A stretch of DNA of 32,015 bases from an uncultured archaeon (GTDB lineage: Archaea; Aenigmatarchaeota; Aenigmatarchaeia; QMZP01; QMZT01): NCBI GenBank assembly GCA_964554465.1, contig CAZKOV010000002.1, forward strand, positions 2,935 to 34,949, given 5' to 3'. Both the position numbers and the translations under genes were made by a program. The notes beneath the pieces are model-generated. The model was not told the DNA's origin. It did not search any database and was given only the letters and a program-made list of their open reading frames with translations. Positions 8,188 through 26,447 of this stretch are shown one piece after another (position 1 is the stretch's first letter; each line of letters begins with the position of its first letter).

Positions 8188-9431
8188 AAAGAGAATTAGT
8201 TTTAGTGACGGTTTTAGCAGTATTGGTTTTGTCAATGACATTACAGGTGAATGCTGCTGAAGACCCGAGGATAAGTGTAAGTTTCATAAGCCAGACTCCG
8301 GATCCTGTGGAACCTGGGGATTATGTAGAACTCAGATGGAAAATAGATAATCTGGCTTCGAAAAGCAATGATTATACATTCGAACTTGATTACAATTACC
8401 CGTTTAGTCTTGACGCCGGTGAAACTGCCCAAAGGAGTGTGGGTTCTCTTACAGGATATCAGACCCTTACAGACGGGGCAATAATATATTGGAAGATGAG
8501 AGTAGCCGAAGACGCCGTCGAAGGTGATATGAACAAGATTCAGGTAAAATATTGGAGAACCTCAGAACCCGGTTTTGTCGTAAGTTCTGGTGAACAGATA
8601 ATAAGAATCCAATCAAGGCAGGGACTTGCCGAAATTGGTCAGGTTAAAATAACACCAGAAGAAGTTGAACTTGGAAAAATGTTCGACATGAAAATAGAAA
8701 TAAACAATAAAGGTACAGGATTTATCAATAATGTAAAAGTGAAAGTAGATACAACAGGAACTGGATTTACTCCGGTAGGCACTACAAACCAGAAAATAAT
8801 AAAAAGAATTTCCGGACAAAGTTCACAGGAGATGACTTTCAAATTCTTTGTGGATGCTAACACGGAAATAAATGTGAACCAGCTTCCTATAAACCTCACG
8901 TATTATGACAAATTCTCAACAGCATACACGGATTCCGCTATAGTAGGCGTTCCCGTGTATGCGAAGCCAGCATACCTGACGAACCTTGAAGACAGCAATA
9001 TTTTCACGGCAGGTAAGAATGGTGAAATAGTTGTTAGTGTATCAAACATAGGAAAAGATATGATGAACTTTGTCGTTCTTGAACTGGTTCAGACAGATGA
9101 CTATGAAGTCGTAGGCTCGTCAAAAACATATCTTGGGAATCTTGAAAGTGATGACTTTGAAACAGGACAGTTCGATATATTCGTGTATCCAACAGAAAAG
9201 GAGTCGGTTCCGTTGGCCTTCAATCTGCACTACAGAGACAGTTATGACAAGGTTTACAGCGAATCGTTCACTGTGGAGAACAAGCTCTATACTACAGAAA
9301 AGGCAACCGAAATAGGTTTAATACAACAGGTCGATTACACTTCCGGTGCGATATTCTGGGTTATAGTAATTGCATTGGTAGCAATATGGTGGTACAGGCG
9401 CAGATGCAAGAAAAAGAACAAGAAAAAATAA
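8184..9431 (+). CDS. Secreted, C-terminally TM-anchored beta-sandwich repeat protein (COG1361 / CARDB-like accessory of archaeal MacB-type ABC systems, 415 aa)
   Basis: Signal peptide (LAVLVLSMTLQVNA-AE). Repeated x-N-x-G motifs (IEINNKGTGFINNVKV, VVSVSNIGKDMMNFVV). C-terminal TM plus basic tail (IFWVIVIALVAIWWYRRRCKKKNKKK). GAGGTGA SD and ATGA overlap with the ATPase gene. Confidence 0.55.
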   Translation: MKRELVLVTVLAVLVLSMTLQVNAAEDPRISVSFISQTPDPVEPGDYVELRWKIDNLASKSNDYTFELDYNYPFSLDAGETAQRSVGSLTGYQTLTDGAIIYWKMRVAEDAVEGDMNKIQVKYWRTSEPGFVVSSGEQIIRIQSRQGLAEIGQVKITPEEVELGKMFDMKIEINNKGTGFINNVKVKVDTTGTGFTPVGTTNQKIIKRISGQSSQEMTFKFFVDANTEINVNQLPINLTYYDKFSTAYTDSAIVGVPVYAKPAYLTNLEDSNIFTAGKNGEIVVSVSNIGKDMMNFVVLELVQTDDYEVVGSSKTYLGNLESDDFETGQFDIFVYPTEKESVPLAFNLHYRDSYDKVYSESFTVENKLYTTEKATEIGLIQQVDYTSGAIFWVIVIALVAIWWYRRRCKKKNKKK

Positions 9432-9464
9432 TCCACCCTCTTCCTTTATTTATTAAAATATTAA

Positions 9465-10688
9465 GTGGTCGAATTGATAAAACCGAGATATATTAAAATG
9501 GGACTGAAGTCTATTAGAGAAAGAAGTATTCGTAGCTGGCTTACTATTTTTGGTATAGTCATTTCCATTGCAGTCATTCTTACTTTATTGTCTTTGTCAG
9601 CAGGAGTCACTTATGCCGTAGAAGAGATGTTTGATGAATTTGGTAGGAACCGTATATTTGTCATTAGTGGGGGAGGCATGCAGGAAATGATGGGAGGATC
9701 ATTTCAGAATGGAATATCGAAAAAAGATATTGAAGCTATCGAATCTTTACCACAATTTAGATTTGTAGTGCCTGCTGTGGCAATACAGGCACAGAAAGTC
9801 GAATATGGGGGAACAGAATTATATCTCATGGTACAGGCATTTCCAAGTGATAACGCTGATATGGTAAATGAAGAATATAATATGAACGAATATGTAATCG
9901 AGGGCCGGCCATTTCAGGAAGACGAAAGAGGAGTCGTTGTGTTGGGATATAAAGTCGCAAAAAACACAGATGATTTCTTTGGTAAACCCATAGCATTGAA
10001 AAATTCAATATACGTCAACGATCGCAAGTTCCGTGTGATTGGCGTTATAAAAGAGTTCGGGAGTCCAGATGATAATTCTATTATGATACCCTTAGAGGAT
10101 GCAGAGGAGATTCTTGATCTGGGCGGTCAATATACAATGGTAGATGCTATAGTAAAGGACGGTGTCGATATCGATGTCGCTGAAGAAAGGCTTGTAAGAC
10201 TGCTTGAGCGGAGAAAGGGCGAGGACACGTTCACGGTTATGACTCCAGATTCCATAATAAGACAGTTCAATGATATGATATTTCTTGTGCAGGGCTTTCT
10301 TCTTGCAATCGCTTCGATAAGCCTTATTGTGGGTGCGGTCGGTATTGCAAATAATATGTTCACATCAGTTCTGGAACGGGAAAAAGAGATAGGCATCATG
10401 AAATCAGTGGGCGCCACAAATCACGATATCCTTCAGATTTTCCTTATTGAAAGCGGGTTGATAGGTTTTTTTGGTGGACTTGCGGGTGTCATCCTAGGTT
10501 CAGTTTTATCACTGATAATTGGAGAGATAGCCGCTGCCATGGGTTATGCTATGCTAAAAATATTAATATCACCCATCAACGTTATCGGTGTACTAGCATT
10601 CGCATTTTTTGTCGGCATGATATCGGGTTTAATACCCGCTTGGTCTGCATCAAGAAAGAAGATTATTGATACTTTGAGGGAGCACTAA
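9465..10688 (+). CDS. ABC transporter permease, FtsX/MacB type (407 aa; GTG at 9465 or ATG at 9498)
   Basis: N-terminal TM (RSWLTIFGIVISIAVIL), a large extracytoplasmic domain, and a C-terminal FtsX block (REKEIGIMKSVGATNHDILQIFLIES plus 3 TM). Confidence 0.85.
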   Translation: MVELIKPRYIKMGLKSIRERSIRSWLTIFGIVISIAVILTLLSLSAGVTYAVEEMFDEFGRNRIFVISGGGMQEMMGGSFQNGISKKDIEAIESLPQFRFVVPAVAIQAQKVEYGGTELYLMVQAFPSDNADMVNEEYNMNEYVIEGRPFQEDERGVVVLGYKVAKNTDDFFGKPIALKNSIYVNDRKFRVIGVIKEFGSPDDNSIMIPLEDAEEILDLGGQYTMVDAIVKDGVDIDVAEERLVRLLERRKGEDTFTVMTPDSIIRQFNDMIFLVQGFLLAIASISLIVGAVGIANNMFTSVLEREKEIGIMKSVGATNHDILQIFLIESGLIGFFGGLAGVILGSVLSLIIGEIAAAMGYAMLKILISPINVIGVLAFAFFVGMISGLIPAWSASRKKIIDTLREH

Positions 10689-11890
10689 TGGATCAACGTT
10701 TAATTAGAATGATCTGGGTAAGGTTCAGAGAAAGAAAACTTAGGTCTAGCCTCACGGTTCTTGGCATTTTAATAGGTATAACTGCACTAGTAGGTCTGAT
10801 ACTCCTCAGTTCCGGTCTCAAGGAAGGTGTCACCAAGCAGCTTGATGTGTTCGGTGCCGATGAGATACTTCTTTCTGCTAAATCGAATATAGGCTTCCAG
10901 GGTCCTTCTGGTTACGGTACCCTTACAACGGATGACGTAAGAACTCTGGACGCTATACCTCAAATACTGTCTGTTGACAGTCTGCTTCAGAGCAATATGG
11001 AAGTTCGATACGGACGTGAAAAGGTGCGTCTGTCAATAAGCGGTGTGGGTAATGATGCAGGAGACACCGACAGAACCGCAGAAGAGTATTTTGATCAGGA
11101 TATTCTTGCAGGGAGATATATGGAAGATTCTGATAGGTATGTTGCAAACATAGGTTATAGAATTGCATATGAGACTTTCGATAAAGATGTGTTGGTTGGA
11201 ACTAGTCTCGAAATAGGCGGAGATAAATACAGGGTCATTGGTATATTTGAAGAAGAAGGAGATATATCATCCGACAATATAATATATGTTCCCATAGAGT
11301 CGTTAAGAGATACAGTAGAAGATTCTAAAGCCATAACAGCGCTGATTGCAAAAATAGCTCCCGGAACAGATATAGATATGATGGTTGAACGTGTCAAATC
11401 TAAACTGGAAAGGAAGAGAGGAAGGGATGATATTGCAGTAACGACCCCGAAACAGATTAAAGAGCAGATAAACAGTCTTATTGGAGTTATAGATTTTGTT
11501 GTTATCGCAATTGCTTTGATAAGTTTATTCGTAGGAGCGCTCGGCATAATGAACTCGATGTACACAGCTGTTCTTCAGCGGGTGAGGGAGATAGGTATAA
11601 TGAAAGCAGTCGGTGCCAAAAACTCTCAGATATTAACATTGTTCCTCATTGAAAGTGCATTCCTTGGTTTTTTTGGAGGGGTGTTGGGGGTAATATTAGG
11701 ATTCATACTCGCATTTGGATTTATCGCAGTAATTAACACCTTTGGATTCATCAAGTTAGTGTTAGAGCCGGATCTTGTCCTTTTCGTTGGAGCTGTTGCC
11801 TTTAGTACAATATTAGGCATACTTTCTGGTTTCCTTCCGGCAGTCAGAGCATCAAAATTAAAGATAGTCGATGCACTGAGATATGAATAA
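10688..11890 (+). CDS. Second ABC transporter permease, FtsX/MacB type (400 aa)
   Basis: Paralogue of the preceding gene (RVREIGIMKAVGAKNSQILTLFLIES). TAATG stop/start overlap. Confidence 0.85.
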   Translation: MDQRLIRMIWVRFRERKLRSSLTVLGILIGITALVGLILLSSGLKEGVTKQLDVFGADEILLSAKSNIGFQGPSGYGTLTTDDVRTLDAIPQILSVDSLLQSNMEVRYGREKVRLSISGVGNDAGDTDRTAEEYFDQDILAGRYMEDSDRYVANIGYRIAYETFDKDVLVGTSLEIGGDKYRVIGIFEEEGDISSDNIIYVPIESLRDTVEDSKAITALIAKIAPGTDIDMMVERVKSKLERKRGRDDIAVTTPKQIKEQINSLIGVIDFVVIAIALISLFVGALGIMNSMYTAVLQRVREIGIMKAVGAKNSQILTLFLIESAFLGFFGGVLGVILGFILAFGFIAVINTFGFIKLVLEPDLVLFVGAVAFSTILGILSGFLPAVRASKLKIVDALRYE

Positions 11891-11891
11891 T

Positions 11892-12701
11892 TTAGCATAA
11901 AGAAACAGCAGCGCCTATTGCAGCGCAATATTCGGCATTTTCTGGAACGGTTGCCTTCCCTCCGAACATCTCCACAGTTTCAATCACGCGGTCTTTTATA
12001 ATTTCATTCAGAACGACCCTTCCGCATAACAAGATGTCATTTTTCAGCCTGCAGGATTTCGCGGCGAAGTACGTCATTACACCCAAAGTTTCCGCTATCA
12101 TATTAAGAAGACTTGATGCTATATCTTTTTTTTCATATTTTCCCTTTAGCTTTCCGAAATTTGATGCCGTGGCATCTCCCGGTATCCTGTATAAATCCGT
12201 CCCCATAATGTCATAGACGGATATATCCATATTACTCCTCCTGCCCATCTCAGCCATGGTCTCCGTTTCTTCGGCGGATGCATCCAGCATGAGTTTTGAT
12301 AAGCCTGTTATTGTTCCTCCACCGATTCCACTTCCTCCCAGATGTTCTATAACCTCGTTTTTTACTGAAACAAAAGCTGTTCCTGTTCCCATACTTACAA
12401 CAAAAATGGTCTTTTTTCCGGAAAGTTTTATTCCTCCAATTCCAAGCGAGATTATTTCATCTACACGGATGAAATTCTTTCCGAAAACGTTTTTTCCGAG
12501 CCTTCTCGATCTTCCACCAGTGACTGCGATTTTTTCTATGTCGTTTATTTGCATACTGCTTTTTTTCAGAAGTCGTTTCATGCATTCTTTCGCGACTTTT
12601 TCATCATTACCGTTTAGCATGACTTTTGATTTTATTTTGCCTCTATCCAGAATTACGCCCCGTGTGTTTGTCCCCCCGACATCGATCCCGGCCACAATCA
12701 T
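11892..12701 (-). CDS. coaW: Type II pantothenate kinase-like protein (CoaW/fumble family, ASKHA fold, 269 aa)
   Basis: Colinear, from memory, with Staphylococcus type II PanK (about 267 aa). Matching motifs: GIDVGGT, MGTGTAF, LGGSGIGGGTITGL, IPGDATASNFG and ENAEYCAAIGA. Confidence 0.7.
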   Translation of the reverse strand: MIVAGIDVGGTNTRGVILDRGKIKSKVMLNGNDEKVAKECMKRLLKKSSMQINDIEKIAVTGGRSRRLGKNVFGKNFIRVDEIISLGIGGIKLSGKKTIFVVSMGTGTAFVSVKNEVIEHLGGSGIGGGTITGLSKLMLDASAEETETMAEMGRRSNMDISVYDIMGTDLYRIPGDATASNFGKLKGKYEKKDIASSLLNMIAETLGVMTYFAAKSCRLKNDILLCGRVVLNEIIKDRVIETVEMFGGKATVPENAEYCAAIGAAVSLC

Positions 12702-16091: not shown

Positions 16092-16502
16092 TTATAACTC
16101 ATTTCCCAGAACTACTTCATTATCAGCATTCCATGCGGGTTCTACTATACACAAAAAGACTAGATCTTTATCTCCTGTGTTCTTTATTCTCTGGACAGAA
16201 TCGGGTGGGATATGTATTGCATCTCCAGATCCGACTTCTTTTGTTTCATCATCGATATACATCAGTCCGCTTCCTTCAAGAATGTAATAAACCTCTGAAG
16301 ATTGTTTCAGTTTATGTCTGTGCGTGATTTCTCCCGGCTTTACGGTTGCTTTTGCGAGGCTGTATCCTACCAGATTATCTTTCTTTCCAATTAATTCCCT
16401 CAAAATACAGTTGTCACCAGCAACAATTTCTTCACAATCTTTCAGGTTTCTGACAAACATAATATCACCTACTTCAATATCTTCTGCGTTTCGCTGTACC
16501 AC
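16092..16502 (-). CDS. Cupin domain protein (136 aa; alternative ATG at 16460 removes the overlap with ogg)
   Basis: Cupin motifs PGEITHRHKLKQSSEVYYILEGSG and GDAIHIPPDSVQRIKNTG. Confidence 0.7.
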   Translation of the reverse strand: MVQRNAEDIEVGDIMFVRNLKDCEEIVAGDNCILRELIGKKDNLVGYSLAKATVKPGEITHRHKLKQSSEVYYILEGSGLMYIDDETKEVGSGDAIHIPPDSVQRIKNTGDKDLVFLCIVEPAWNADNEVVLGNEL

Positions 16503-17092
16503 AGATAAAAATCAAGTTCTCCCTGACTCAGTCCTGTCTTTTTTGCGATCTTTCCGAGAAGTCCTTCTATTTCCAGATATTTCTTCTTGGATATCGTTTT
16601 GGGTCTTTCTATCAGGCCGTAATCAACCAGAACATCGATGATATGGAAATCTATTATTGCGAAGTTCTCATAACCGATGTTCCGGAGGAAATGGCTGGCC
16701 TCCTTGTAGCCGAGACCCTTTATGTTCTTAACTATCCAGTCTCTTAGCTCATTTCCATCCTTCGAGTCTATCAATTCTTTCAGGAAATCCCCGTATTTCC
16801 TGTTGCAGGCGATGTAATTGGCACGGGTGTTGGGAAAGCGATGACCAAGTTCTTTCAGTTTTTTTGCAAGCTTCTTTTCCTCCAGATTCAAAAAACAGTC
16901 ACCCATTTTTTCTTCTATTTCCATAGCGCGTTTTGCATCGAAATTGGCAGTCATTATACAGAAACACATCTGCTTGAATATTTCATGACTCGGTTTCTTT
17001 CTATTTTCCCTGAATTGTTTCATTTTTAAGTCTACAATATCTTTTACTTCGCTGTTCTTCAGTTTTTCAACTAATTCTATTAATTTTTCCAT
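16469..17092 (-). CDS. ogg: Archaeal-type 8-oxoguanine DNA glycosylase/AP lyase (Ogg2 class, HhH-GPD, 207 aa)
   Basis: HhH plus catalytic Asp region (IKGLGYKEASHFLRNIGYENFAIIDFHI). The size matches the short archaeal Ogg class. AGGGGA SD; the start lies 13 nt after the rubrerythrin stop. Confidence 0.8.
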   Translation of the reverse strand: MEKLIELVEKLKNSEVKDIVDLKMKQFRENRKKPSHEIFKQMCFCIMTANFDAKRAMEIEEKMGDCFLNLEEKKLAKKLKELGHRFPNTRANYIACNRKYGDFLKELIDSKDGNELRDWIVKNIKGLGYKEASHFLRNIGYENFAIIDFHIIDVLVDYGLIERPKTISKKKYLEIEGLLGKIAKKTGLSQGELDFYLWYSETQKILK

Positions 17093-17105: not shown

Positions 17106-17693
17106 TTAGTAATTCTCACATTTTATCTGGAAATAGCTTTTAGGATGGCTGCAAGAAGGACAGCTTTCCGGCGGCTCGCTTCCGTCGTGTATATAGCCGC
17201 ATTTCATGCACATCCAGTATCTTTTGTCCGGTTTCTTGAACACCGTTTTGTTTTCCAGAACTTCGAGGAGTTTTGTGTACCTTTCTTCATGGTGCTCTTC
17301 AGCCTTTGCAATGGCCCTTATTCTTGCAGCAATGGCAGAGAAGCCTTCGTCTGCAGCTGTTTTTGCGAATTCCGGATAAAGGCCGCTGTTTTCTTCATGC
17401 TCTCCTTTTATTGCTGCTATGAGGTTGGCTTTCGTGTCCCCGATAGTTATAACGGCTGACGTGTCAACCATAATATTTTCGATGTCTTCTGTTTCCTCTT
17501 TCTTTGCTTCCTGAAGCATCCTGAAAAACCATTTCGCGTGCTCTCTCTCGTTTTCTGCCGTGAGAAGGAATATCTCCGCAATCTGCATGAATCCTTCCTT
17601 CTCGGCAATTCTTGCGTACATCGTGTACCTGTTCCTTGCCTGGGATTCCCCCACAAAAGCCTTGGTTAAATTTTCAACTGTCTCCAACATCAT
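17106..17693 (-). CDS. rbr: Rubrerythrin (di-iron domain plus C-terminal rubredoxin domain, 195 aa)
   Basis: FVGESQARNRYTMYA, ENEREHAKWF, AKAEEHHEERY and C-terminal CMKCGY...CPSCSHP. AAGGTGG SD. Confidence 0.9.
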   Translation of the reverse strand: MMLETVENLTKAFVGESQARNRYTMYARIAEKEGFMQIAEIFLLTAENEREHAKWFFRMLQEAKKEETEDIENIMVDTSAVITIGDTKANLIAAIKGEHEENSGLYPEFAKTAADEGFSAIAARIRAIAKAEEHHEERYTKLLEVLENKTVFKKPDKRYWMCMKCGYIHDGSEPPESCPSCSHPKSYFQIKCENY

Positions 17694-17770: not shown

Positions 17771-18358
17771 TTAAGAGGATTTTTCAGAATGTTTTTTGTC
17801 CTTCGGCTTTCTTATCTTATTCCTTGCTTTTGTTTTCAGTGATTTTATCCTTTCCCATTCCTCCTGAAGCTTCGATTTATGCTCTATCGTAAACGACAGG
17901 TGTGACCATAGATACATGAAAACGGCAAGCGCGAGAAGATATCCCATATACCTGAATAAATATAGATTTTCAGGCCTTCCCACAATCTTCAAAATAGTTA
18001 CTATGTCCCCGGAATCTGCAAAGAAGTAGAAAAGGGGATCAGATGCGAATCCTATCATTGCGAACATTAGAAGGTTGCTAAGAATCATGTGCTTCTTCAT
18101 TCGCGCGTATAATATCAATAATGCGAGGAAAATGGAGATAAAGATATTGCCCATAAGCCCTGCAGCAAGAAAAACCACGGCCTGAATATCGTTAAGATTG
18201 CATAACGGGGCCACTTCTGCAAAAATTCCGGCTTCGTATGTATGATGCATTGTGAATATGTAAGAGCAGTCAAATTCTTTCAGAATCATTATATGAAATG
18301 ACTCGTGTGTCAGGGGCGCAATAAAAACAGCTATTATAAGAAATACTATAAGACCCAA
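17771..18358 (-). CDS. Polytopic membrane protein with N-terminal HExxH motif (putative zincin, DUF3267-like, 195 aa)
   Basis: LTHESFHIM lies at the end of TM1, followed by about 5 hydrophobic helices and a basic C-terminal tail. TTG start (no in-frame ATG upstream). The family assignment is from memory only. Confidence 0.45.
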   Translation of the reverse strand: MGLIVFLIIAVFIAPLTHESFHIMILKEFDCSYIFTMHHTYEAGIFAEVAPLCNLNDIQAVVFLAAGLMGNIFISIFLALLILYARMKKHMILSNLLMFAMIGFASDPLFYFFADSGDIVTILKIVGRPENLYLFRYMGYLLALAVFMYLWSHLSFTIEHKSKLQEEWERIKSLKTKARNKIRKPKDKKHSEKSS

Positions 18359-18416
18359 GATTCCAGAGGAATAATAATTCTTATAATATCCCCTTGGCGT
18401 TGTTTTCTCGTAACCT

Positions 18417-18599
18417 TCAATTTTTATCCCCTTGGCTTATCTCTGATGGATTTGTATCGTTTACCAAATTCGCTAGATTCATAAGTTCCTGTCTCTGGCA
18501 TTCAAAAATATCCGGAATGGAGTATCTGTTTTTAACAATATAAATAATGAATGACATTATCGTCAGCATAAAGGAAATGAAAATAATTCTCTCTATCAT
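18417..18599 (-). CDS. Small single-TM protein (60 aa from ATG 18599)
   Basis: The hydrophobic helix begins right after the start (MIERIIFISFMLTIMSFIIYIV). The ATG follows the upstream stop after 1 nt (TGA-C-ATG), suggesting coupled translation. Confidence 0.4.
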   Translation of the reverse strand: MIERIIFISFMLTIMSFIIYIVKNRYSIPDIFECQRQELMNLANLVNDTNPSEISQGDKN

Positions 18600-18600
18600 G

Positions 18601-19899
18601 TCAGTCACTCATTTCCTCTATTATGCGACGGGCGCTTTTATAGAAGTCTGAAAAGTTCTCTCCTTCAAAACCTTTACCGGCATATTCACATTCGCTTACC
18701 CTCTGGAAAAATCCAATTATTTCTTTTTTAATGTCATCGTGAATTTCCTTCTTCTCCTTCAATATATCTATAAGTTCCCCGTACGTTGTGGAAAAATTAA
18801 TTTCAAGTTTAATCTCAAGGAAATCCTTAAGTACGTGAGCAACTTTTATTATTGCTTTCCTTCTGTCTGATATTTCTTTTATTTTCTCAAGATTTTCTTT
18901 TGCCAGTCTCTCAAGTTTTGCTTCCCTGTTTTCTTTTTTAGTCTGCTTGAAAATCTTGGTTACTCCCGTGATAAGTCCCCCTTCCTTCTTTTCCTCTGTC
19001 TTCTTTTTCTTTTTCTTTTTTTCTTCGGCTTTCTTTTCCTTGGGCGGAATTTCTTTTTTCATATCTATAAGTTTGATTTCCTCATCGGTTTTCTTTTCAA
19101 TCTGATCCTCTCCCTTTTTTGACTGAACAAATTCCACCCGACTGCCAAAGGGTTTAGCTGGTATATTAATATCAATCGCTTGCCTGGGGGGTTTTGGTTC
19201 CTCCGGTGGTTTCGGAGCCTCCGAAGGTGCCCTCTGTGAACTCTGCATTTCTATCTGATGTTTTTTCTCTTGATCCTCTTCAGGGGATTTTGGAATTTCC
19301 TGTACGTTTTGCTGGTTTAGGGGTTCTGGCTCTACATTTTGCTGCGGCTCTTCATTTACAGCCCGTTTTTCTTCTTTTATCGTCTCATCCTGTTTGAAGA
19401 CGTCATCTTTTCCTTCTTCGGCTTCTTCTCTATACCAGCTATCTGGTGATTCTTTTTTTTGCAATTGATCGGATTGGCCGGAAGAAAATCTAAGGTTAAT
19501 AGGTGTACCTTCACCTTCTGTTTGCGCTGGCATAAGCATGGGAGATATACCCGAGAAACCGAATCCTGCATAACGATTTCCCATTCTCAGTGCATCATAG
19601 AAAAGACTTGCAGGGAAGTTGACTTTGTCGGAATCGAAATTAAGCGGTACCTGTTCTTTTCCGGTATCAAAAACAACTCTCGGACCTTTTGCATCCTTTA
19701 TTATCTTTATTTCGCCCAGAACCATTTCCTTTTCGGGTATTCTTACAGTCTTGACTTTTGTAATCGTTTTCATTTTTCCATTCAATATTTCTTTCTGTCT
19801 CTTTATTTCTTTAATTCCGGACTCATATTCCTTTTTAGTTATAACACCCTTCATATAAGCCTTCTTCAATATATCTGATAGTTTTTGAGACATGAACAT
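18601..19899 (-). CDS. K/E/P-rich, largely low-complexity protein with ordered N- and C-terminal modules (about 432 aa)
   Basis: Long ORF in an operon position after the VWA gene. N-terminal AYMKGVITKKEYESGIKEI is SHOCT-like. The middle is E/K/P/Q-rich with KKKKKKK. The C-terminal ~90 aa is helical. Track start is TTG 19908; ATGs at 19899 and 19893. Confidence 0.6.
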   Translation of the reverse strand: MFMSQKLSDILKKAYMKGVITKKEYESGIKEIKRQKEILNGKMKTITKVKTVRIPEKEMVLGEIKIIKDAKGPRVVFDTGKEQVPLNFDSDKVNFPASLFYDALRMGNRYAGFGFSGISPMLMPAQTEGEGTPINLRFSSGQSDQLQKKESPDSWYREEAEEGKDDVFKQDETIKEEKRAVNEEPQQNVEPEPLNQQNVQEIPKSPEEDQEKKHQIEMQSSQRAPSEAPKPPEEPKPPRQAIDINIPAKPFGSRVEFVQSKKGEDQIEKKTDEEIKLIDMKKEIPPKEKKAEEKKKKKKKTEEKKEGGLITGVTKIFKQTKKENREAKLERLAKENLEKIKEISDRRKAIIKVAHVLKDFLEIKLEINFSTTYGELIDILKEKKEIHDDIKKEIIGFFQRVSECEYAGKGFEGENFSDFYKSARRIIEEMSD

Positions 19900-19979
19900 T
19901 ACCAACAATTATTAATGTAATTAATTATTATGGTTAATACTTTAATAAATCATAATTAACCGCAAACATGTGGCTTATA

Positions 19980-20930
19980 TTAGGGCAGCGGTCTGTATTT
20001 TGTTATTTCTAAACCCCACTCTATAAGAAGAACGAAACAGACGAGCAAAAGCAGGTAGAAGGTCGGGCTTATCTCGGCTTCCTTGTATTTTATTCCCGCC
20101 TTGAGGGCATCGCTAAGCGCCGTCTCGTTGGAAACCACGAAATACATACCATCAGTGTCTTCTGCTATTAATTTAAGTGCATCTTCATCCAGTTCGGGGA
20201 AACGTGCAATTGTCTTATTGGAATCAGTCGAGTTGTCATAAACGGTTACGTTTTCCTGCTTTGTACCTATGCCTATGACTATTACTTTTATGTTGTTTTC
20301 CTTCAATGTTTTGAGCGAATCGTTAATTGGTGTTCCCATGTTATTTATACCGTCTGTTGTCAGTATTATCGTTCTGTTTCTGTTTGAATCGTAAAGAAGG
20401 GACGTACTTGTTATAAGTGCATCACCTATCGCTGTTCCTGCGGGCTGCTCAAGTCTTACAGCTTTCATTATTTTTTTGAGTTCATTCTGGTCTTCAATCA
20501 GCTTCGTTTTTACGTAAGCCTTACCTGAAAAGGTCACTATGCCTATATTTGTTTTTTGTATATCATCGAGCCACTCAAGATACACCTCTTTCGCGGCCTC
20601 CAGCCTGTTTGGAGTGAAATCAGGAGTGAGCATGGAAGAAGACGTGTCTATTGCCATGACAAAGTCTGTATTAGCTATGTACTGACCGTATATAAGCCTC
20701 GGGTCGGATATTGTTATGACTATCAGGGCAAAGACCATTATCCTCAATATAAGCGGGACAAGACTTACGGAAAATATCTTTCTTCCCATTGTCCTTTCAA
20801 GTGTCTCGTAATTGCCGAAAACCATTGTTCTTTTTTTTGAAAATTTCTTCGAAAGGAGAAATAATATTACAACAACGCCTATCAAAATCAGAAGCATGTT
20901 CATATATTCGTATGAAAATATCAGTCTCAT
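19980..20930 (-). CDS. Membrane-anchored von Willebrand factor A domain protein (BatA-like, 316 aa)
   Basis: Two N-terminal TM helices. MIDAS DxSxS in VMAIDTSSSM, TDGINN, and a C-terminal TM. Confidence 0.85.
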   Translation of the reverse strand: MRLIFSYEYMNMLLILIGVVVILFLLSKKFSKKRTMVFGNYETLERTMGRKIFSVSLVPLILRIMVFALIVITISDPRLIYGQYIANTDFVMAIDTSSSMLTPDFTPNRLEAAKEVYLEWLDDIQKTNIGIVTFSGKAYVKTKLIEDQNELKKIMKAVRLEQPAGTAIGDALITSTSLLYDSNRNRTIILTTDGINNMGTPINDSLKTLKENNIKVIVIGIGTKQENVTVYDNSTDSNKTIARFPELDEDALKLIAEDTDGMYFVVSNETALSDALKAGIKYKEAEISPTFYLLLLVCFVLLIEWGLEITKYRPLP

Positions 20931-20942
20931 TTAATATAACAC

Positions 20943-21935
20943 CTAGTATTCTTCACTGAGTTCTATGTATTTAACCAGTTGCTTGACAAACGTATCGGTA
21001 GTGTATATCCTGAAAAAACCGGCATGAGTGTTTCTGAATTCAGATTCAATCATGTTAACCTGTTCCGCTGCAAGTTTTTCGTATTTTAAACGTGCAACAT
21101 CCGAATCGATTGTCATTATCCTATCGCTGAATGGATCTTTCACTCTCATATATCCTATATTTTTGGGAAGAACCTCGTCCCTTATATCTTTTACCATAAT
21201 TCCTATAATGCGATCGATCTTGCCTCCCAGCATTTTTAATGCATTCTTCCATTCTTCTCCTTTTATGCCAAGGAAATCGGAAATAATGAATAAAATAGTC
21301 CTCGGATCAGCTATGTTAAGAACATAAGACAAAACATCTTCCAGATTGCATGGACCCTGCTGATTTTTTGGATCTACAATCAGCCGGAGAGATTTATAAT
21401 ATTGCGTGTTTTCGTTCGAAGGTTCAAGATTTTTAACGACGCCATCATTGAAAATAGTAAATCCCGTATTATCTCCTGTTTCCACAGCCGCATATACTAT
21501 TGCACCAGCAACTATGCTTGCATATTCGTATTTTGTTCTATTCTGTGTCCCAAAAAACATGGAACTTGATGAATCCAGAAGCACTTGTACGAACAAGTCC
21601 CTTTCCTCTTCATATTGCTTTACATATAAAGATTTTGAACGGAGAGATGCTTTCCAGTCAATTTTAGTTGCATCATCCTGACCGGGGACGTATTCCCGAA
21701 GGCCTGCAAACTCTATACCGCTTCCCTTGAAAAGAATCTGATATTTCAGCATGAACCTGAAAACATCAATGAGTTTTTTTACTTCCTTATCAATCTCGTT
21801 TATCAGATTTTTCATTACAAGATTCGGATCGTCTGTGCTTCCTTCGCCCCTTATCTTAGTACTAAGGGCTTGGGACAGTCTCCTATACTTGGTTTTTTCC
21901 TTTTTTAAATTCCCGGTTTCTTCTTTTTCACTCAT
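20943..21935 (-). CDS. DUF58 family protein (330 aa)
   Basis: REYVPGQDDATKIDWKASLRSKSLYVKQYEEERD and VLLDSSSSM are classical DUF58 signatures. ATGA overlap with the upstream moxR. Confidence 0.8.
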   Translation of the reverse strand: MSEKEETGNLKKEKTKYRRLSQALSTKIRGEGSTDDPNLVMKNLINEIDKEVKKLIDVFRFMLKYQILFKGSGIEFAGLREYVPGQDDATKIDWKASLRSKSLYVKQYEEERDLFVQVLLDSSSSMFFGTQNRTKYEYASIVAGAIVYAAVETGDNTGFTIFNDGVVKNLEPSNENTQYYKSLRLIVDPKNQQGPCNLEDVLSYVLNIADPRTILFIISDFLGIKGEEWKNALKMLGGKIDRIIGIMVKDIRDEVLPKNIGYMRVKDPFSDRIMTIDSDVARLKYEKLAAEQVNMIESEFRNTHAGFFRIYTTDTFVKQLVKYIELSEEY

Positions 21936-23173
21936 AAAACAGGAACCCTCTTCATTATTTCTTCAATTAAATCATCTGTGCTTATTTCTTTGGCCTTCCC
22001 TTCATAGTTAAGAATTAACCTGTGACGGAGAACTTCTTTTGCAACCGATTTTATATCTTCAGGAGTTACAAACACTCTTCCGTTTAGAAGTGCTGTTGCT
22101 TTTGCCGAGAGACCCAAAAATATGCTTGCTCTCGGGGAAGCTCCGTACTGTATGTATTTTGCTTCTTCGCCAAGTCCGTGTTCCTTCGGATTTCTTGTTG
22201 CATCAACTATGTTGACTATATATTCCTTTAACTCCTGAGAAAGGTGAATATACTTTACAATCTCCTGCATCTCAATTATCTCGTAAGGGGATATCACTTT
22301 ACGGATACCGTATTCTTCTATTGTTTTCATGTTGCTGTTCTGATCCATGACAAGAAATTCGTTATCTTCATCAGGGTAATCGACAAAAACTTTGAATAAG
22401 AAACGGTCTATTTGGGCCGCTGACAATGGATAGACACCACGCTGTTCAAGCGGGTTCTGGGTTGCCATCACGAAGAAAGGTTTTGGAAGATCGTAAGTTT
22501 TTCTTCCTATAGTGACCTGATTCTCTTGCATTGCCTGAAGCATCGCGGACTGGACTTTAGGTGGTGTTCTGTTAAGTTCGTCGGCCAGTATAACATTTGC
22601 AAAAATAGGTCCTTTCATGACATAGAAACCTTTAATTTTATCATAAACAGTGACACCTGTAATGTCTGTTGGCAGAAGATCGGGAGTAAACTGTATCCTG
22701 TTAAAAGAACTGTTTTGCATTGCCTCGTTCAAAAGCATTGCGAGAAGTGTTTTTGCAAGTCCGGGCACCGATTCCAATAAGACATGACCTCCTGAAACCA
22801 TGCATTTCAGTACGGAATCTATAACCGTATCCTGTCCTATTATACCCTTTTTTACTTCGTTTTTTATTGTTTCTATCTTTTGCTTGTATTTTTTCACACA
22901 ATCCAGGAGTTCTTCTTCTGTTGGAGCGTGCCTTTCATAATCAGCTTTTGCTGTAAATCCTTTAGTGTCTTCTGAAACATTATCTATAACGGTCGATTTA
23001 ATTCCTCTTTCTGTTTCAGTCGTTTCTTCCTTTTTTGCCGGACTACTTGTCTTTTTCTTCTTATGTTTCCTTGAAGCCGTTTTTTTAACTTTTACAAGCC
23101 TTTTTTTTACAGTTCTTTTTTTGACTGGTTTTCTCTTTGGTGCTGTCTTCCTTGCCTTCTTTTTAGTCGTCAT
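21932..23173 (-). CDS. moxR: MoxR-type AAA+ ATPase paralogue with ~60-aa polybasic N-terminal extension (within ~85 extra N-terminal residues) and deviant Walker A (413 aa)
   Basis: MoxR core (FTPDLLPTDITGVT, ADELNRTPPKVQSAMLQAMQE, FFVMATQNP). The P-loop reads SVPGLAKT instead of GxPGxGKT. The N-terminus is MTTKKKARKTAPKRKPVKKRTVKKRLVKVKKTASRKHKKKK. Confidence 0.9.
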   Translation of the reverse strand: MTTKKKARKTAPKRKPVKKRTVKKRLVKVKKTASRKHKKKKTSSPAKKEETTETERGIKSTVIDNVSEDTKGFTAKADYERHAPTEEELLDCVKKYKQKIETIKNEVKKGIIGQDTVIDSVLKCMVSGGHVLLESVPGLAKTLLAMLLNEAMQNSSFNRIQFTPDLLPTDITGVTVYDKIKGFYVMKGPIFANVILADELNRTPPKVQSAMLQAMQENQVTIGRKTYDLPKPFFVMATQNPLEQRGVYPLSAAQIDRFLFKVFVDYPDEDNEFLVMDQNSNMKTIEEYGIRKVISPYEIIEMQEIVKYIHLSQELKEYIVNIVDATRNPKEHGLGEEAKYIQYGASPRASIFLGLSAKATALLNGRVFVTPEDIKSVAKEVLRHRLILNYEGKAKEISTDDLIEEIMKRVPVL

Positions 23174-24162
23174 AACACCGGCACCTTCTTTATTATCTCA
23201 TCAACAATGTCGTCTGTTACTATCTCCTTCGCCTTGCCTTCATAGTTAAGAATTATCCTGTGACGGAGAACTTCTTTTGCAACAACCCTTATATCTTCTG
23301 GTTTGACGTATGTCCTTCCATCAAGAAGTGCTGTTGCACGTGATGCCAGCCCAATATATATTGTAGCCCTTGGCGAGCCTCCCCATTGCATATAATGGGC
23401 GTTGTCAAGTTCATACTTTTTGGGATCTCTTGTAGCCGAAACCATATGGAGAATGTATCTTTTGAGTTCGTCAGAAATGTAAATATTTTTTACTATCTGC
23501 TGAACCTCTAGTATTTCACTGAGGGAAATTGCCGGCTCAATTCCGTAATCATCAAGGCTTTTATTGTCTGCGTTGTTTTCTACAATTTCAATTTCATGCT
23601 CCTTGTTGGGATATGTTATAGTCCCCTTGAACAGAAAACGGTCAACCTGCGCCTCAGGCAAAGGATAAACGCCTTTAGTTTCTACAGGATTTTGTGTAGC
23701 CATGACGAAGAAAGGTTTAGGAAGATCGAATGTTTCCTTACCTATAGTGACCTGACGTTCCTGCATTGCCTGAAGCATTGAAGATTGGACTTTTGGTGGC
23801 GTCCTGTTTATCTCATCGCCTATTACTATATTCCCGAAAATGGGTCCCTTGACGATATAGAATTCACCTTTCTTCTCATCATAAATGGTGACGCCTGTTA
23901 TATCTGTTGGCAGGAGATCTGGAGTGAACTGTATTCTCTGGAAAACGACATCTTTGACGGTTTTTGCTAGAATAGTTACTATTAAAGTTTTCCCAACACC
24001 AGGAACACCTTCAACAAGAACGTGACCGTTGCATATTAAAGCTCTAGAAAGAGTATTAACAATTGCATCCTGTCCTACTATGGCCTTTTTTATCTCTTTT
24101 TTGATGTTTTTGAATTTTTGACTATATAATTCCACTTTATTTTCAAGCTCCAGATTATTCAT
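23170..24162 (-). CDS. moxR: MoxR-type AAA+ ATPase (330 aa)
   Basis: Canonical Walker A GVPGVGKT, Walker B IGDEINR, PPKVQSSMLQAMQERQVTIG and FFVMATQNP. Its own TATA-like element and a T-rich tract lie upstream (24163-24302). Confidence 0.9.
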   Translation of the reverse strand: MNNLELENKVELYSQKFKNIKKEIKKAIVGQDAIVNTLSRALICNGHVLVEGVPGVGKTLIVTILAKTVKDVVFQRIQFTPDLLPTDITGVTIYDEKKGEFYIVKGPIFGNIVIGDEINRTPPKVQSSMLQAMQERQVTIGKETFDLPKPFFVMATQNPVETKGVYPLPEAQVDRFLFKGTITYPNKEHEIEIVENNADNKSLDDYGIEPAISLSEILEVQQIVKNIYISDELKRYILHMVSATRDPKKYELDNAHYMQWGGSPRATIYIGLASRATALLDGRTYVKPEDIRVVAKEVLRHRIILNYEGKAKEIVTDDIVDEIIKKVPVL

Positions 24163-24302
24163 GATTATATTATTATTTAAGACCCCATTTATAGTTTATA
24201 TTTTGTTTTCCAAAAAGCATTAGCCACATAGAAAAAATAATTATCACTAAAAGTAAAAAAGTAATAAAAGAAAAAGAGAATGGGTTTATTGGTTTATTTT
24301 AT

Positions 24303-25301
24303 TTATGTTGCCTGATCGCTCATAGCGATTATGGTCATTGTTCCTTCCTTAGCTATACCCATCATGACACCGTATGGTATACGGACATGTATATCTGCAA
24401 TGGTTGAATTACCTGGATACAGGTTTCCGTCAGTCGAGTTATCCCAGAAGTATTTGACATACGCTCCGGCTCCTCCGGTGTATGCAGCAGAAGCCCCTGG
24501 AGCATCCAAGTTCCATTTGTACAGCATCAGCTTTTCTCCGCAATCCCAGACAGCGACCGTGTAACTTGTCCACGGACCTGCATCTATGTTTACATATCCG
24601 ACATTCCCTGAAGGACTGCCTGTCCATCCAGCATCGTTCAGTGTAAATTCATTGAAATCTACACCATCTTGTGCATCCTCGTTTGTATCGAAGTTCAGTG
24701 AACCGTCAACCGTCTGCGAGTGATAGTTGATGCCGATTCTCAGTGTTGTTGTGTTGCAGTTTGCGGGCGTCGACTGGTTTTCGACCGTCCAGAAATACTC
24801 ATACGTCGTGTTCCTGATACGGCCATATCTCCAGTTCGCGGGCGTGTTCAAGTATACAAGTTCCTGGCTTTCGTTATATTCCATCCTGTTGACGAAATAG
24901 TATGTATCATCCTGATATTTGGATACCACAACGAAGTTTGCAGAGTCATAGTTTAATGGATCACCTGTACCGAACGGGTTTGAAGATTCATATGTTGTGT
25001 TAAACCATATATGGGTTATATTTGTTGAGCCTATGTTCTCGATCTGGATGCTGCCTGGCCTGTTGAAATGTGTTTTCTGATATAGGTTCTGACCTGTACC
25101 CACAGTACCCGGGTTTAAAGCGCTGTTGTTGAAAATCAGTTTTTCGGGTGCAGCATCAACCAACGTAAGCGCTGCTATCTCTACAGTTATGTTTGCCGTG
25201 TTTGTTGTATTGGTATTTGCTGCTTCGGTACCAGGGAAATTGGAAATTCCCACGATTCCGACAGCCAATATCGCTAAAAGAGCCACTAATTTCCTCATCA
25301 T
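24303..25301 (-). CDS. Secreted, N-glycosylation-sequon-rich protein, paralogue A (about 332 aa)
   Basis: Signal peptide (MMRKLVALLAILAVGIVGISNFPGTEA). At least 10 N-x-S/T sequons and no C-terminal TM. AAGGTGAAATGG precedes ATG 25301 (the track start at 25310 is GTG). Confidence 0.7.
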   Translation of the reverse strand: MMRKLVALLAILAVGIVGISNFPGTEAANTNTTNTANITVEIAALTLVDAAPEKLIFNNSALNPGTVGTGQNLYQKTHFNRPGSIQIENIGSTNITHIWFNTTYESSNPFGTGDPLNYDSANFVVVSKYQDDTYYFVNRMEYNESQELVYLNTPANWRYGRIRNTTYEYFWTVENQSTPANCNTTTLRIGINYHSQTVDGSLNFDTNEDAQDGVDFNEFTLNDAGWTGSPSGNVGYVNIDAGPWTSYTVAVWDCGEKLMLYKWNLDAPGASAAYTGGAGAYVKYFWDNSTDGNLYPGNSTIADIHVRIPYGVMMGIAKEGTMTIIAMSDQAT

Positions 25302-25390
25302 CCATTTCACCTTACCTAATATTTACTTACAACCTCCTTATAAGCATTGAGTTGATAATGACAACAATTCTACTCATATAGTTTTTTATT

Positions 25391-26326
25391 TTATGTTCCA
25401 TAGCTTGATTGTGCTATAACTGTCAATTTTCCCTGAACGCTTCCGATATCACCCCAGTGAACACCATATGGCACTCTTACCCTTACAGTCGCAAGAACCC
25501 ACGAACCCGGCGTGAGTGTGGTTGAAGTAAAGTTTTGAGCATACGCGCATTGCGTACCGCCAGGTGCATCAGTGTTCCATCTATAGAACATAACCGTATC
25601 GCAAGTATCCTCCACGGCAACGCACATCTGCCAATTGTTTGCACTCACGTTTATTGCTGCATACCCCCAACTATTGTTGTTTGATGCCTGGGTAAGCGTG
25701 TATTGATAATATCTGGTCCCTTGACCACCATCACTAAGATCAGAATCTCCCGTGACCGACTGGTTGTGTTCATCTATACCTATCCTGAATATCCTTCCAT
25801 TTAAGTTGCAGGCTCCCGAGCCGGCATCAACGCCCCAGAAATATTCATGTGAAGCATTCCTGAACCTACCGTAATAATATCCCGTCGGCACCGTCACATA
25901 AACTATCGTGTTTGATGCGTTATATTCAACCCTGTTGGGGAACATCCAAGCATTGTCTCCGCTTTCAGTATCACGTTTTATGACGACAAAATTTCCTGCA
26001 TTATAACTCGCATTAGTACCTGAACCGAACGGGTTTGATGAAGGATAAGTATTATTAAACCATACACCGGTTATGTTGGTTGAACCTATGTTCTCAATTT
26101 GGATAGATCCATATCCACCATCATCTATACCACTTTGTGAACCTGGATCAACATTTGACCATGTAAGACTTGCTGGTGTTATGTCAACGAGAGTTTTTTG
26201 GGCAACGGTTATTGTAATATCAACCTCATCGACCTGCGTTACAGCATATGTTTCTGGTAAAAAAACAATTGCCATTGAAAGTAAAGTCAAGCTAAAAAAT
26301 ACTAAAACGTAAATTCCTTTGCTCAT
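25391..26326 (-). CDS. Secreted, N-glycosylation-sequon-rich protein, paralogue B (311 aa)
   Basis: Signal peptide (VLVFFSLTLLSMAIVFLPETYA). Shares IQIENIGSTNIT-x-[VI]WFN-x-TY-x-SSNPFG, EYFW and R[VI]PYGV blocks with paralogue A. The same AAGGTGAAATGG leader precedes the ATG. Confidence 0.7.
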   Translation of the reverse strand: MSKGIYVLVFFSLTLLSMAIVFLPETYAVTQVDEVDITITVAQKTLVDITPASLTWSNVDPGSQSGIDDGGYGSIQIENIGSTNITGVWFNNTYPSSNPFGSGTNASYNAGNFVVIKRDTESGDNAWMFPNRVEYNASNTIVYVTVPTGYYYGRFRNASHEYFWGVDAGSGACNLNGRIFRIGIDEHNQSVTGDSDLSDGGQGTRYYQYTLTQASNNNSWGYAAINVSANNWQMCVAVEDTCDTVMFYRWNTDAPGGTQCAYAQNFTSTTLTPGSWVLATVRVRVPYGVHWGDIGSVQGKLTVIAQSSYGT

Positions 26327-26447
26327 CCCATTTCACCTTATGTATTATTATTGTGCAAATCCCTTATATATTTGTTGTTTATCTTTAACAGAAAATCTTA
26401 CTGAATGAACATTCTTTGAAAAACGGTAATATTTTATTCTTGTTAAC

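Follow-up and report, generated by a model that had tools for sequence, protein, structure and literature searches.

To our knowledge, Bat and MoxR-proper (MRP) modules, which combine a MoxR-type AAA+ ATPase with a DUF58 protein and a protein with the A-type domain of von Willebrand factor (VWA), belong to the AAA+ systems most widely distributed in prokaryotes and have no agreed mechanism or client. In mycobacteria, ripA and ripB stand upstream of moxR1, a DUF58 gene (Rv1480) and the gene for a VWA membrane protein; MoxR1 binds RipA and is reported to act as its chaperone (PMC12067865). The bifidobacterial PFNA cluster consists of pkb2, fn3 and genes for a MoxR-type AAA protein, a DUF58 protein and a transglutaminase (PMC12067865). 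In Borrelia, the BatA homologue BB0173 has transmembrane (TM) segments at residues 7-25, 57-77 and 310-328, and its VWA domain was shown experimentally to be periplasmic (PMC5700661). Here we describe a MoxR-DUF58-VWA locus of an uncultured archaeon of the Aenigmatarchaeota, located in a stretch of 32,015 nucleotides of contig CAZKOV010000002.1 (the window). A block at 17771-26326 encodes two secreted paralogues (SEC-A and SEC-B), two MoxR ATPases (MoxR1 and MoxR2), a DUF58 protein, a BatA-like VWA membrane protein, a K/E/P-rich low-complexity protein (KEPC), a small protein with one TM helix (mini-TM) and a membrane protein with an HExxH motif.

A first-pass annotation of the window had proposed a cluster of nine co-oriented genes, and the coordinates of the open reading frames (ORFs) bore this out: all nine ORFs of the block lie on the minus strand. 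It had also placed the core of the cluster in the Bat/aerotolerance type. A Bat/MRP-type core was confirmed by matches to AAA_3, DUF58, VWA and BatA (NF047508) and by BatB-like PDB entries. We read the nine genes as one copy of a conserved cell-surface cassette of DPANN (Diapherotrites, Parvarchaeota, Aenigmarchaeota, Nanoarchaeota and Nanohaloarchaeota) archaea. In this reading, for and against which we find the case evenly balanced, the MoxR-DUF58-VWA module would be dedicated to SEC-A and SEC-B as clients, with the VWA protein as a tether, AAA+ control from inside and processing by the HExxH protein.

Conservation of the cassette and of its core

With a profile of the SEC proteins as anchor, 57 loci were obtained from a scan that took one genome for each GTDB species. 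The SEC-anchored set analysed comprised 62 non-redundant loci, and hidden Markov models of the window proteins and orthologues served to annotate all loci. The order of the cassette was SEC-A, SEC-B, one or two MoxR genes, DUF58, VWA, KEPC and a HExxH protein with four TM helices. With SEC and with the HExxH protein as anchor alike, it was recovered in Aenigmat-, Micr-, Woese-, Nanohalo- and Altiarchaeota, that is, in at least five DPANN phyla. The MoxR-DUF58-VWA arrangement was conserved in 31 loci. MoxR, DUF58, VWA, KEPC and HExxH genes were present together in 20 of the 62 SEC loci. Another 12 had part of the cassette (11 of these were cut by a contig end), and 24 were too short to judge. 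Of the 27 SEC loci whose downstream side extends for at least 8 kb, the core MoxR-DUF58-VWA was found in 21, and 19 of those 21 had KEPC and HExxH as well.

The flanks differed wholly between lineages, with a Hef-like helicase and a rubrerythrin in the window and TiaS, sugar-metabolism genes or RadA elsewhere. Six contigs with SEC homologues (from an Aenigmarchaeota genome, Altiarchaeales contigs, a 1.56-Mb contig of the Joint Genome Institute (JGI) and others) had the same downstream series within unrelated flanks. The gene set was also kept where the order had changed. Loci L017, L028, L029 and L041 read SEC SEC VWA DUF58 MoxR(-) KEPC HExxH, the core was inverted in L052, and KEPC-HExxH had moved upstream in L019 and L047. 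Searches of JGI metagenomes with the HExxH protein as anchor gave 13 loci; KEPC lay directly upstream in nine of the ten informative ones, VWA-DUF58-MoxR was found in 6/6 and SEC in 4/4. KEPC adjoined the HExxH gene in all complete cassettes. The first-pass annotation had left it to a neighbourhood analysis whether the genes around the core vary freely between relatives. We found that, across phyla and in shuffled orders too, the core is accompanied by the secreted pair, KEPC and the HExxH protein. Mini-TM, which had been counted as a regular member, proved to be lineage-specific, its homologues being confined to close Aenigmat- and Micrarchaeota relatives (L001, L002, L009, L010, L066 and L068). 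The gene content of the cassette, its conservation across phyla, the predicted localisations of its products and their intact catalytic motifs and metal-ion-dependent adhesion site (MIDAS) motifs are established here.

MoxR1 (23170-24162, 330 aa) is an AAA+ ATPase of the MRP type. It matched AAA_3 (E = 6.5e-61; 204.4 bits, cutoff 27) and AAA_lid_2 (E = 1.6e-18; 66.6 bits, cutoff 22.7). The corresponding values for its paralogue MoxR2 (21932-23173, 413 aa) were E = 1.9e-56 (189.9 bits, cutoff 27) and 71.9 bits (cutoff 22.7). Both matched PDB entry 2R44 (E = 2e-94 for MoxR1 and 9e-96 for MoxR2), and they were 59% identical to each other (E = 5e-152). MoxR1 has the Walker A motif GVPGVGKT, Walker B DE, sensor 1 TQNP, arginine finger DRF and sensor 2 SPRA. 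In MoxR2 the last four are the same and intact, and the P-loop reads SVPGLAKT. The second ATPase had been called deviant. When 45 cassette MoxRs and PDB 2R44 were compared, AKT was the MoxR norm, and MoxR2 departed from the usual P-loop GVPGLAKT (as in 2R44) in one residue, a G to S change at the first position, so that the label did not hold.

SVPGLAKT was kept in the second-position MoxRs of cassettes of the Aenigmat-, Micr- and Altiarchaeota types, with L008 (GVPGVAKT) as the sole exception, and the P-loop of first-position and single MoxRs followed the pattern G[VA]PG.[AG]K[TS]. A single MoxR was present in Nanohaloarchaeota and some others. In a neighbour-joining tree, calculated without support values, most first- and second-position MoxRs fell into separate clades spanning phyla; L019 and L008 were among the exceptions. 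Because these position-wise clades span phyla, the split between MoxR1 and MoxR2 indicates an old duplication, with MoxR2 as an ancient paralogue, and suggests that the two might form a hetero-hexamer.

A K-rich N-terminal extension of about 85 aa on MoxR2 was found in the window, L001 and L009 only. In the window its codons (about 22925-23173) encode a lysine-rich, histone-tail-like sequence, KKKARKTAPKRKPVKKRTVKKRLVKVKKTASRKHKKKKT. The window lineage also has a K-rich C-terminal tail on the HExxH protein and a poly-K tract in KEPC. In some loci the second MoxR was split into two ORFs, by a frameshift or as a pseudogene, and one HExxH orthologue had YExxH instead (L006 12086-13071; L027 9622-10616; L052 6981-7538). 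Such cases suggest partial decay of the cassette in some lineages.

Kaur et al. (2020) reportedly described MoxR-vWA ternary conflict systems. Both ATPases of the window matched the bpMoxR family PF20030 (E = 7e-14 and E = 2e-12), as a biological-conflict or defence system of that type would lead one to expect. We consider such a role extremely improbable. AAA_3 scored far higher than bpMoxR (E = 1e-61), the cassette contains no beta-propeller, effector or other conflict-type partner, and it is single-copy, syntenic and vertically conserved. PADLOC matched no system and gave only a weak DolB match for MoxR1 (E = 6e-5, 20 bits). On this negative result the defence reading was rejected.

The DUF58 protein (20943-21935, 330 aa) matched PF01882 (E = 1.8e-38) and has no TM segment. 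It has a VWA-like fold with a MIDAS-like DxSxS motif, and the pattern DxSx[ST]/SDF was kept in 28 DUF58 orthologues; a PDB sequence search found no solved relative. The VWA membrane protein (19980-20930, 316 aa) contains a VWA domain (E = 3.3e-17) and matched NF047508 (BatA) with E = 6e-27. Its match to the BatA N-terminal domain PF07584 was below threshold (E = 0.0024; 18.7 bits, cutoff 25.9). The PDB entries closest to the VWA domain were 3IBS (Bacteroides BatB), 4RCK and 4JDU ('aerotolerance-related'). Three TM helices were predicted at residues 9-27, 56-74 and 291-309, two N-terminal and one C-terminal, which is the BatA layout, and the loop 28-55 has eight K/R against two D/E. From this layout and the strongly basic loop, the VWA domain is predicted to face outward, with residues 75-290 as the ectodomain. 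The protein has 6 sequons, against 2.5±1.4 expected, and the MIDAS residues (DxSxS, T, D) were conserved in 29/29 VWA orthologues. No convincing TM segment was seen in MoxR1, MoxR2, the DUF58 protein or KEPC, the hydrophobic stretch 48-66 of MoxR1 spanning its P-loop, and these four are predicted to be cytoplasmic.

The junctions agreed with those given before. Four-nucleotide ATGA overlaps were present at 23170-23173 (MoxR1/MoxR2) and 21932-21935 (MoxR2/DUF58), and the gaps were 12 nt before the VWA gene, 71 or 80 nt before the K/E/P gene, 1 nt before mini-TM and 58 nt before the HExxH gene. The T-tract and TATA-like element noted between the secreted genes and moxR were located in a 140-nt spacer (24163-24302, minus strand), where oligo-T runs and an A/T-rich TATA-like stretch can be read. 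The spacer, which separates the secreted genes from moxR, is likely a terminator or attenuator with an internal promoter. Its place is taken by a helix-turn-helix (HTH) gene in 26 other loci, which supports a regulatory boundary there. In most lineages, an HTH protein of 70-90 aa (motif PLSTYxIAKxxxxSWSTxNxHCYKLK) is encoded between the SEC genes and/or just before moxR, for example at 12065-12289 and 8527-8814 in L003 and at 12102-12323 in L004. The window and its closest relatives lack this gene and retain the oligo-T/TATA spacer alone.

The secreted pair and the other partner families

The first-pass annotation had added to the core several partners of no described family, and we indeed found no Pfam or NCBIfam match for the remaining five proteins. 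SEC-A (25391-26326, 311 aa, A-type) is a secreted beta-rich protein and probably a glycoprotein. SEC-B (24303-25310), the B-type paralogue, has 335 aa if read from GTG and, more likely, 332 aa from the ATG at 25301. AAGGTGAAATGG, a Shine-Dalgarno-like 12-mer, lies directly before the ATG in both secreted genes (25298-25320 and 26320-26345, minus strand), and because the two share it, ATG 25301 is a better start for SEC-B than GTG 25310. The two proteins had been called sequon-rich paralogues, and both parts of the claim held. They are 37% identical (E = 2e-61), and their sequons exceed the expectation from composition (9 against 4.7±2.0 in shuffles for SEC-A, and 11 against 5.6±1.9 for SEC-B). 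Per 100 aa, the SEC family had a median of 3.4 sequons, the VWA protein 1.9, and MoxR, DUF58, KEPC and HExxH proteins 0-0.5. SEC-A and SEC-B are probably glycosylated.

SEC-A has an N-terminal signal-like hydrophobic segment and lacks a C-terminal anchor. The N-terminal segment was found in 112 of the 114 full-length SEC proteins and a C-terminal TM segment in none of them. A twin-arginine-like motif was present in 3/114, and the signal peptides look Sec-type. A search of a collection of 5.8 billion proteins retrieved 111 SEC homologues. All of those with a source name came from DPANN-type metagenome-assembled genomes (Aenigmat-, Micr-, Nanohalo- and Altiarchaeota). No Pfam or NCBIfam family matched the SEC proteins, and a PDB sequence search with the SEC profile gave no match. 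Judged by sequence, SEC-A and SEC-B are a new family of DPANN archaea. A-type and B-type members form separate clades, and the pairs were always ordered A then B in every lineage examined. The hamus protein is a 97-kDa protein (Perras et al.); SEC proteins are about 33 kDa, and a role as hamus subunit was rejected.

Residues P51, P61, E78, N79, G81, S82, P99, R154, E161, P273, G274, P286, G288 and G299 are invariant in the SEC family, and H187 and D253 nearly so. An AlphaFold2 (AF2) model of SEC-A (predicted local distance difference test score, pLDDT, 92.9; predicted template modelling score, pTM, 0.84) was all-beta. The conserved N-terminal segment, I-x-V-x-V...TMVDIxP, has an alternating pattern, and DSSP assigned no strand to it in this model. 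A Foldseek search with the model against PDB and BFVD returned nothing at E<=0.001. The PDB matches that followed the top one, the TasA fibre 8AUR, were assorted jelly rolls, among them weak lectin-like and GH16 matches.

The conservation of these residues, which is very strong for secreted proteins, and the lectin-like and GH16 matches might point to another role. SEC-A and SEC-B could be secreted enzymes or host-interaction effectors, matured by MoxR-VWA (e.g. through metal insertion), with the HExxH protein cleaving a pro-form. The MoxR-VWA pairs NorQ/D, CoxD/E and CbbQ/O are cofactor-insertion or activation chaperones, which counts for this possibility, as does the fact that RipA and RipB are enzymes activated by proteolysis (PMC12067865). 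We think it unlikely, however. Pfam, NCBIfam and PDB sequence searches gave no catalytic-family signature for the SEC proteins, and the system also occurs in free-living Altiarchaeota, so attack on a host is not its general role.

KEPC (18601-19908, minus strand) has 435 aa if read from TTG, and comparison with its homologues made the ATG at 19893 (MSQKLSDIL...) the likeliest start. It had no Pfam or NCBIfam match. Its C-terminal helical domain of about 100 aa is conserved and could be aligned across six, and then 24, cassettes, and the N-terminal and central parts are variable. A profile of the C-terminal domain found one close homologue only among 5.8 billion proteins. Two resemblances were considered: Pfam gave no support for a SHOCT-like N-terminus, which was rejected, and a possible DUF4129/DUF4381-like C-terminal domain gave no match in the family searches. 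The variable region has lineage-specific repeats. Altiarchaeota-type KEPCs (L003, L004, L032 and L040) carry 2-5 copies of '[SD]x[IF]FK[ND]xF', and those of Nanohaloarchaeota are very acidic proteins of 520-660 aa with repeated helical modules. The genes of this survey included L003 16342-17895, L040 5372-6688 and those of L036, L044 and L049.

The HExxH protein (17771-18433, minus strand) is encoded by a canonical ORF at 17771-18358 (195 aa) and a conserved in-frame extension to 18433. Four TM helices were predicted, and HExxH at residues 18-22 overlaps the end of TM1 (3-21). In 79 members of the family, H18, E19, H22, G67, G117 and D118 were conserved at >=90%, the GD following TM3. At 50% identity, the family counts 107 representatives in a set of 1.84 billion proteins. 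Pfam searches of the 79 members yielded scattered sub-threshold matches, to DUF3267 in 11 proteins (best E = 7e-6) and to M50 in 6, both counted at E<0.01, and to M50B in 1. The window protein matched DUF3267 below threshold (E = 0.59; 11 bits, cutoff 27.1), and the best orthologue, that of L008, reached 25.6 bits for M50B, with a cutoff of 26. The protein had been called a putative intramembrane zincin. The HExxH in a TM helix with a conserved Asp downstream fits this claim, and no Pfam match above threshold was obtained. By its sequence it appears to be a distant, miniature relative of intramembrane zincins (DUF3267, M50) and a putative protease. From loop charges, the conserved GD and the end of TM1 that bears HExxH are predicted to lie outside and the K-rich tail inside, and the low-confidence AF2 secondary structure was compatible with this topology.

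The start of the HExxH gene is unusual. Its conserved N-terminal 24 codons (18358-18433) are open and in frame, without a canonical start that covers them. Relative to L001 they show 8 synonymous and 5 nonsynonymous differences, and judged by this comparison they are under purifying selection. In this region the window has TAA-GCC where L001 (17861-17944) has ATG. Directly upstream lies the mini-TM gene (ORF 18417-18608, minus strand; 60 aa from the ATG at 18599), whose product contains a single hydrophobic stretch (residues 5-23). Relative to the mini-TM frame, that of the HExxH gene is shifted by +1 in the window, across an A5 run (GAT AAA AAT TGA). In L009 (11502-12329), the mini-TM and HExxH ORFs are one frame broken by a single TAG. 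Possible explanations are initiation at a near-cognate codon, a recoding event by which mini-TM becomes fused to the protease, and errors of the assembly; mini-TM is possibly part of the HExxH gene product.

Candidate mechanism and gene neighbourhood

The block had been suggested to be a system for surface-protein assembly, remodelling or stress. A surface-related role is favoured by the predicted topology, the sequon density and the topology of BB0173, while the functional part of our reading is argued from topology and precedent. Signal peptides and sequon density suggest that SEC-A and SEC-B are exported via Sec and N-glycosylated. Outside the membrane, the MIDAS of the three-TM VWA protein would capture an acidic residue of the SEC proteins, and this capture could tether or nucleate an A/B hetero-assembly, be it lattice, fibre or adhesive layer. 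On the cytoplasmic side, MoxR1 and MoxR2 would form a hetero-hexamer that docks on the soluble DUF58 protein as a VWA-like adaptor. By analogy with known MoxR-VWA partnerships, MoxR and DUF58, together with KEPC as a disordered scaffold, might then switch or reset the membrane VWA protein by ATP. Such inside-out control of the VWA protein would be comparable to that of integrin I-domains. The HExxH protein, with its active site at the outer leaflet, may trim or release the SEC proteins or the VWA ectodomain.

The position of ripA-ripB upstream of moxR1 makes SEC-A and SEC-B candidate clients of the MoxR module by precedent. The same precedent admits a different function, in which MoxR1/2-DUF58 binds SEC precursors before export and hands them to the export machinery, the VWA protein, KEPC and the HExxH protein being downstream or independent. 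The mycobacterial ripA-ripB/moxR1/DUF58/VWA layout is the same, with two secreted paralogues upstream and a reported chaperoning of RipA by MoxR1, and a cytoplasmic location is predicted for MoxR, DUF58 and KEPC alike. However, RipA is exported via the twin-arginine translocation (Tat) pathway, which takes folded proteins, whereas the SEC signals are Sec-type, and a cytoplasmic foldase is less obviously needed. The constant retention of an outward MIDAS domain and an outward protease would also be left unexplained. We regard a pre-export chaperone as rather unlikely.

The surroundings of the block in the window bear on a further possibility, namely a generic Bat-like module for envelope or oxygen stress, with the secreted genes as mere neighbours and unrelated targets, as in Bacteroides aerotolerance. 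The VWA protein, with its NF047508 match, is closest to BatB/aerotolerance structures, and the window is rich in O2-defence genes, including two rubrerythrins, a desulfoferrodoxin and Fur. The O2-stress genes are a Fur-family gene (5313-5702), rubrerythrins (5704-6219 and 17106-17693), a desulfoferrodoxin (6473-6856), a cupin (16092-16502) and an Ogg-type glycosylase (16469-17092). The first-pass annotation had stressed this O2-defence region. The genes are present as it stated, but the flank is shared only with the close relatives L001 and L002 and is absent around the cassettes of Altiarchaeota, Nanohaloarchaeota and others. Since the flank is not conserved, it is no argument for an oxygen-related function, and a link of the cassette to oxygen defence was rejected. 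In addition, the SEC linkage survives across phyla and rearrangements, and Pfam and NCBIfam searches found neither the TPR proteins BatC and BatE nor BatD among the nine proteins. We therefore consider a generic Bat module quite improbable.

Elsewhere, the window encodes an ABC ATPase, a CARDB-like protein of 415 aa and two tandem MacB/FtsX permeases (7372-11890), preceded by a secreted 725-aa beta-propeller (3020-5197; PF09826, E = 2e-152). These ABC/MacB and beta-propeller genes are envelope-associated and unrelated to the cassette. Composition was uniform across the window, and no tRNA genes or Rfam elements were found in it.

In 22 loci, outside the window, a second conserved operon stands divergent to the SEC genes. 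It encodes P362, P200, P274, a MinD/ParA-like ATPase and a CarboxypepD_reg protein of about 824 aa, with a KaiC-like ATPase added in some loci (examples are L003 3070-7275, L007 2290-5873 and L011 1-2270). P362 has a signal peptide, a beta ectodomain and C-terminal TM segments. P200 has an N-terminal TM segment and a PapD-like/ASH Ig domain (Pfam E = 1.6e-7 for the L011 member), and P274 matched the 'IENxGS' region of SEC with an HHalign probability of 87%. Often convergent downstream of the cassette, and likewise outside the window, are a sequon-rich protein of 742-1084 aa with C-terminal TM segments (P804; 19 loci), an anchored protein of about 264 aa (P264; 9 loci) and a giant DUF2341/Laminin_G_3 surface protein of 4000-6000 aa (10 loci). 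Such genes lie at L003 18607-21023, L004 18176-20981, L006 16552-21002 and L008 8434-13102. The SEC genes appear as a hub that joins two machineries, which supports a role in a surface structure.

Several observations weigh against the client-and-tether reading. Six of the 62 SEC loci have at least 8 kb downstream and none of the MoxR, DUF58, VWA, KEPC and HExxH genes. Most genomes also carry extra SEC pairs, and SEC can thus be encoded apart from the cassette. In the window, the oligo-T spacer suggests that moxR may be transcribed apart from the SEC genes. The kinship of the HExxH protein to known proteases is sub-threshold only, and its AF2 model was poor (pLDDT 59, from a 7-sequence alignment). 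The contact between SEC and VWA and the action of MoxR across the membrane are inferred by us from topology and precedent. We know of no Bat-type system in which transmembrane coupling of MoxR was demonstrated. The P362-P200-P274-MinD/ParA-CarboxypepD_reg operon stands beside SEC equally often and could be the real assembly machinery; its presence is a reminder that assembly itself may not be the task of the MoxR cassette.

In a bolder form of the reading, DPANN and Altiarchaeota would share an extracellular polymer or lattice that had gone unrecognised and is built of SEC-A and SEC-B; its nucleation, anchoring or release would be driven from the cytoplasm by the MoxR1/2 hetero-hexamer through DUF58 and the transmembrane VWA protein. 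We regard this form as rather doubtful. The best PDB match of the SEC-A model, 8AUR, was marginal (E = 0.011, probability 0.54, TM score 0.22-0.27), and we therefore do not class SEC as a TasA homologue. Since no structural relative of the SEC fold was significant, a polymer is not established. If true, this would be the first AAA+/VWA inside-out machine controlling an archaeal surface structure and would provide the first defined client for a Bat/MRP MoxR-DUF58-VWA module.

Across at least five DPANN phyla, MoxR-DUF58-VWA is genetically hard-wired to a secreted pair and two further uncharacterised families. DPANN archaea with their small genomes keep little that is dispensable, and the cassette is retained there. 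Our reading names concrete candidate partners, namely the VWA ectodomain with SEC-A/B, MoxR1/2 with DUF58 and KEPC, and the HExxH protease with SEC. Four uncharacterised families are probable components of the DPANN cell surface, which for many of these archaea is the interface of host attachment. The SEC genes also tie the cassette to the second operon and the giant surface proteins, and this larger envelope-biogenesis neighbourhood had no description in the searchable literature.

Comparison with described systems

The HExxH protein resembles the site-2 protease (M50), M50B and DUF3267 families in that HExxH lies in the first TM helix and an Asp after a later helix is conserved. Compared with site-2 proteases, it is much smaller (160-230 aa), lacks PDZ or CBS domains and constitutes a small family of its own. 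The SEC proteins can be compared with TasA and the archaeal donor-strand fibres (AbpA bundling pili, threads, cannulae and tafi), which also consist of secreted, beta-rich, glycosylated subunits of similar size. The conserved N-terminal SEC segment to which no strand was assigned is a further point of likeness. The structural match of the TasA fibre to SEC is insignificant (E 0.011, TM score about 0.2-0.3), and there is no sequence match. No signal peptidase family of the SipW/TafD type was found in the window cassette with Pfam and NCBIfam, and the tafi literature searched did not mention MoxR or VWA genes.

Among the gene clusters, the bifidobacterial PFNA cluster shares with the cassette the gene of a beta-sandwich surface protein directly upstream of MoxR-DUF58. 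It has a kinase and a transglutaminase in place of the BatA-like VWA protein, KEPC and the HExxH protein, and its surface protein is unrelated to SEC. The mycobacterial ripAB-moxR1 locus is similar in that tandem secreted paralogues lie directly upstream of MoxR-DUF58-VWA and are kept across a clade. RipA and RipB, however, are NlpC/P60 peptidoglycan hydrolases exported via Tat, whereas the SEC proteins have Sec-type signals and no recognisable enzyme domain; neither NlpC/P60 nor any other Pfam domain was found in them. The mycobacterial locus also lacks KEPC, a HExxH partner and a second MoxR.

The Bat/MRP operons (MoxR-DUF58-BatA/BatB-BatC-BatD-BatE), such as BB0170-BB0176 of Borrelia and the bat operon of Leptospira, share with the cassette an MRP-type ATPase, a DUF58 protein and a three-TM VWA protein. 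The outward topology predicted for the VWA domain of the window protein is that of BB0173. The cassette differs from the Bat operons in its single VWA membrane protein, in its often two ancient MoxR paralogues and in its DPANN host. It also adds SEC-A/B, KEPC and the HExxH protein, none of which has been described in Bat operons. Full-text literature searches on MoxR or von Willebrand proteins in DPANN archaea turned up no account of the cassette, its SEC, KEPC and HExxH families or the pairing of MoxR1 with MoxR2. The core MoxR-DUF58-VWA module is known, and the expanded DPANN cassette, together with its partner families, appears to be new.

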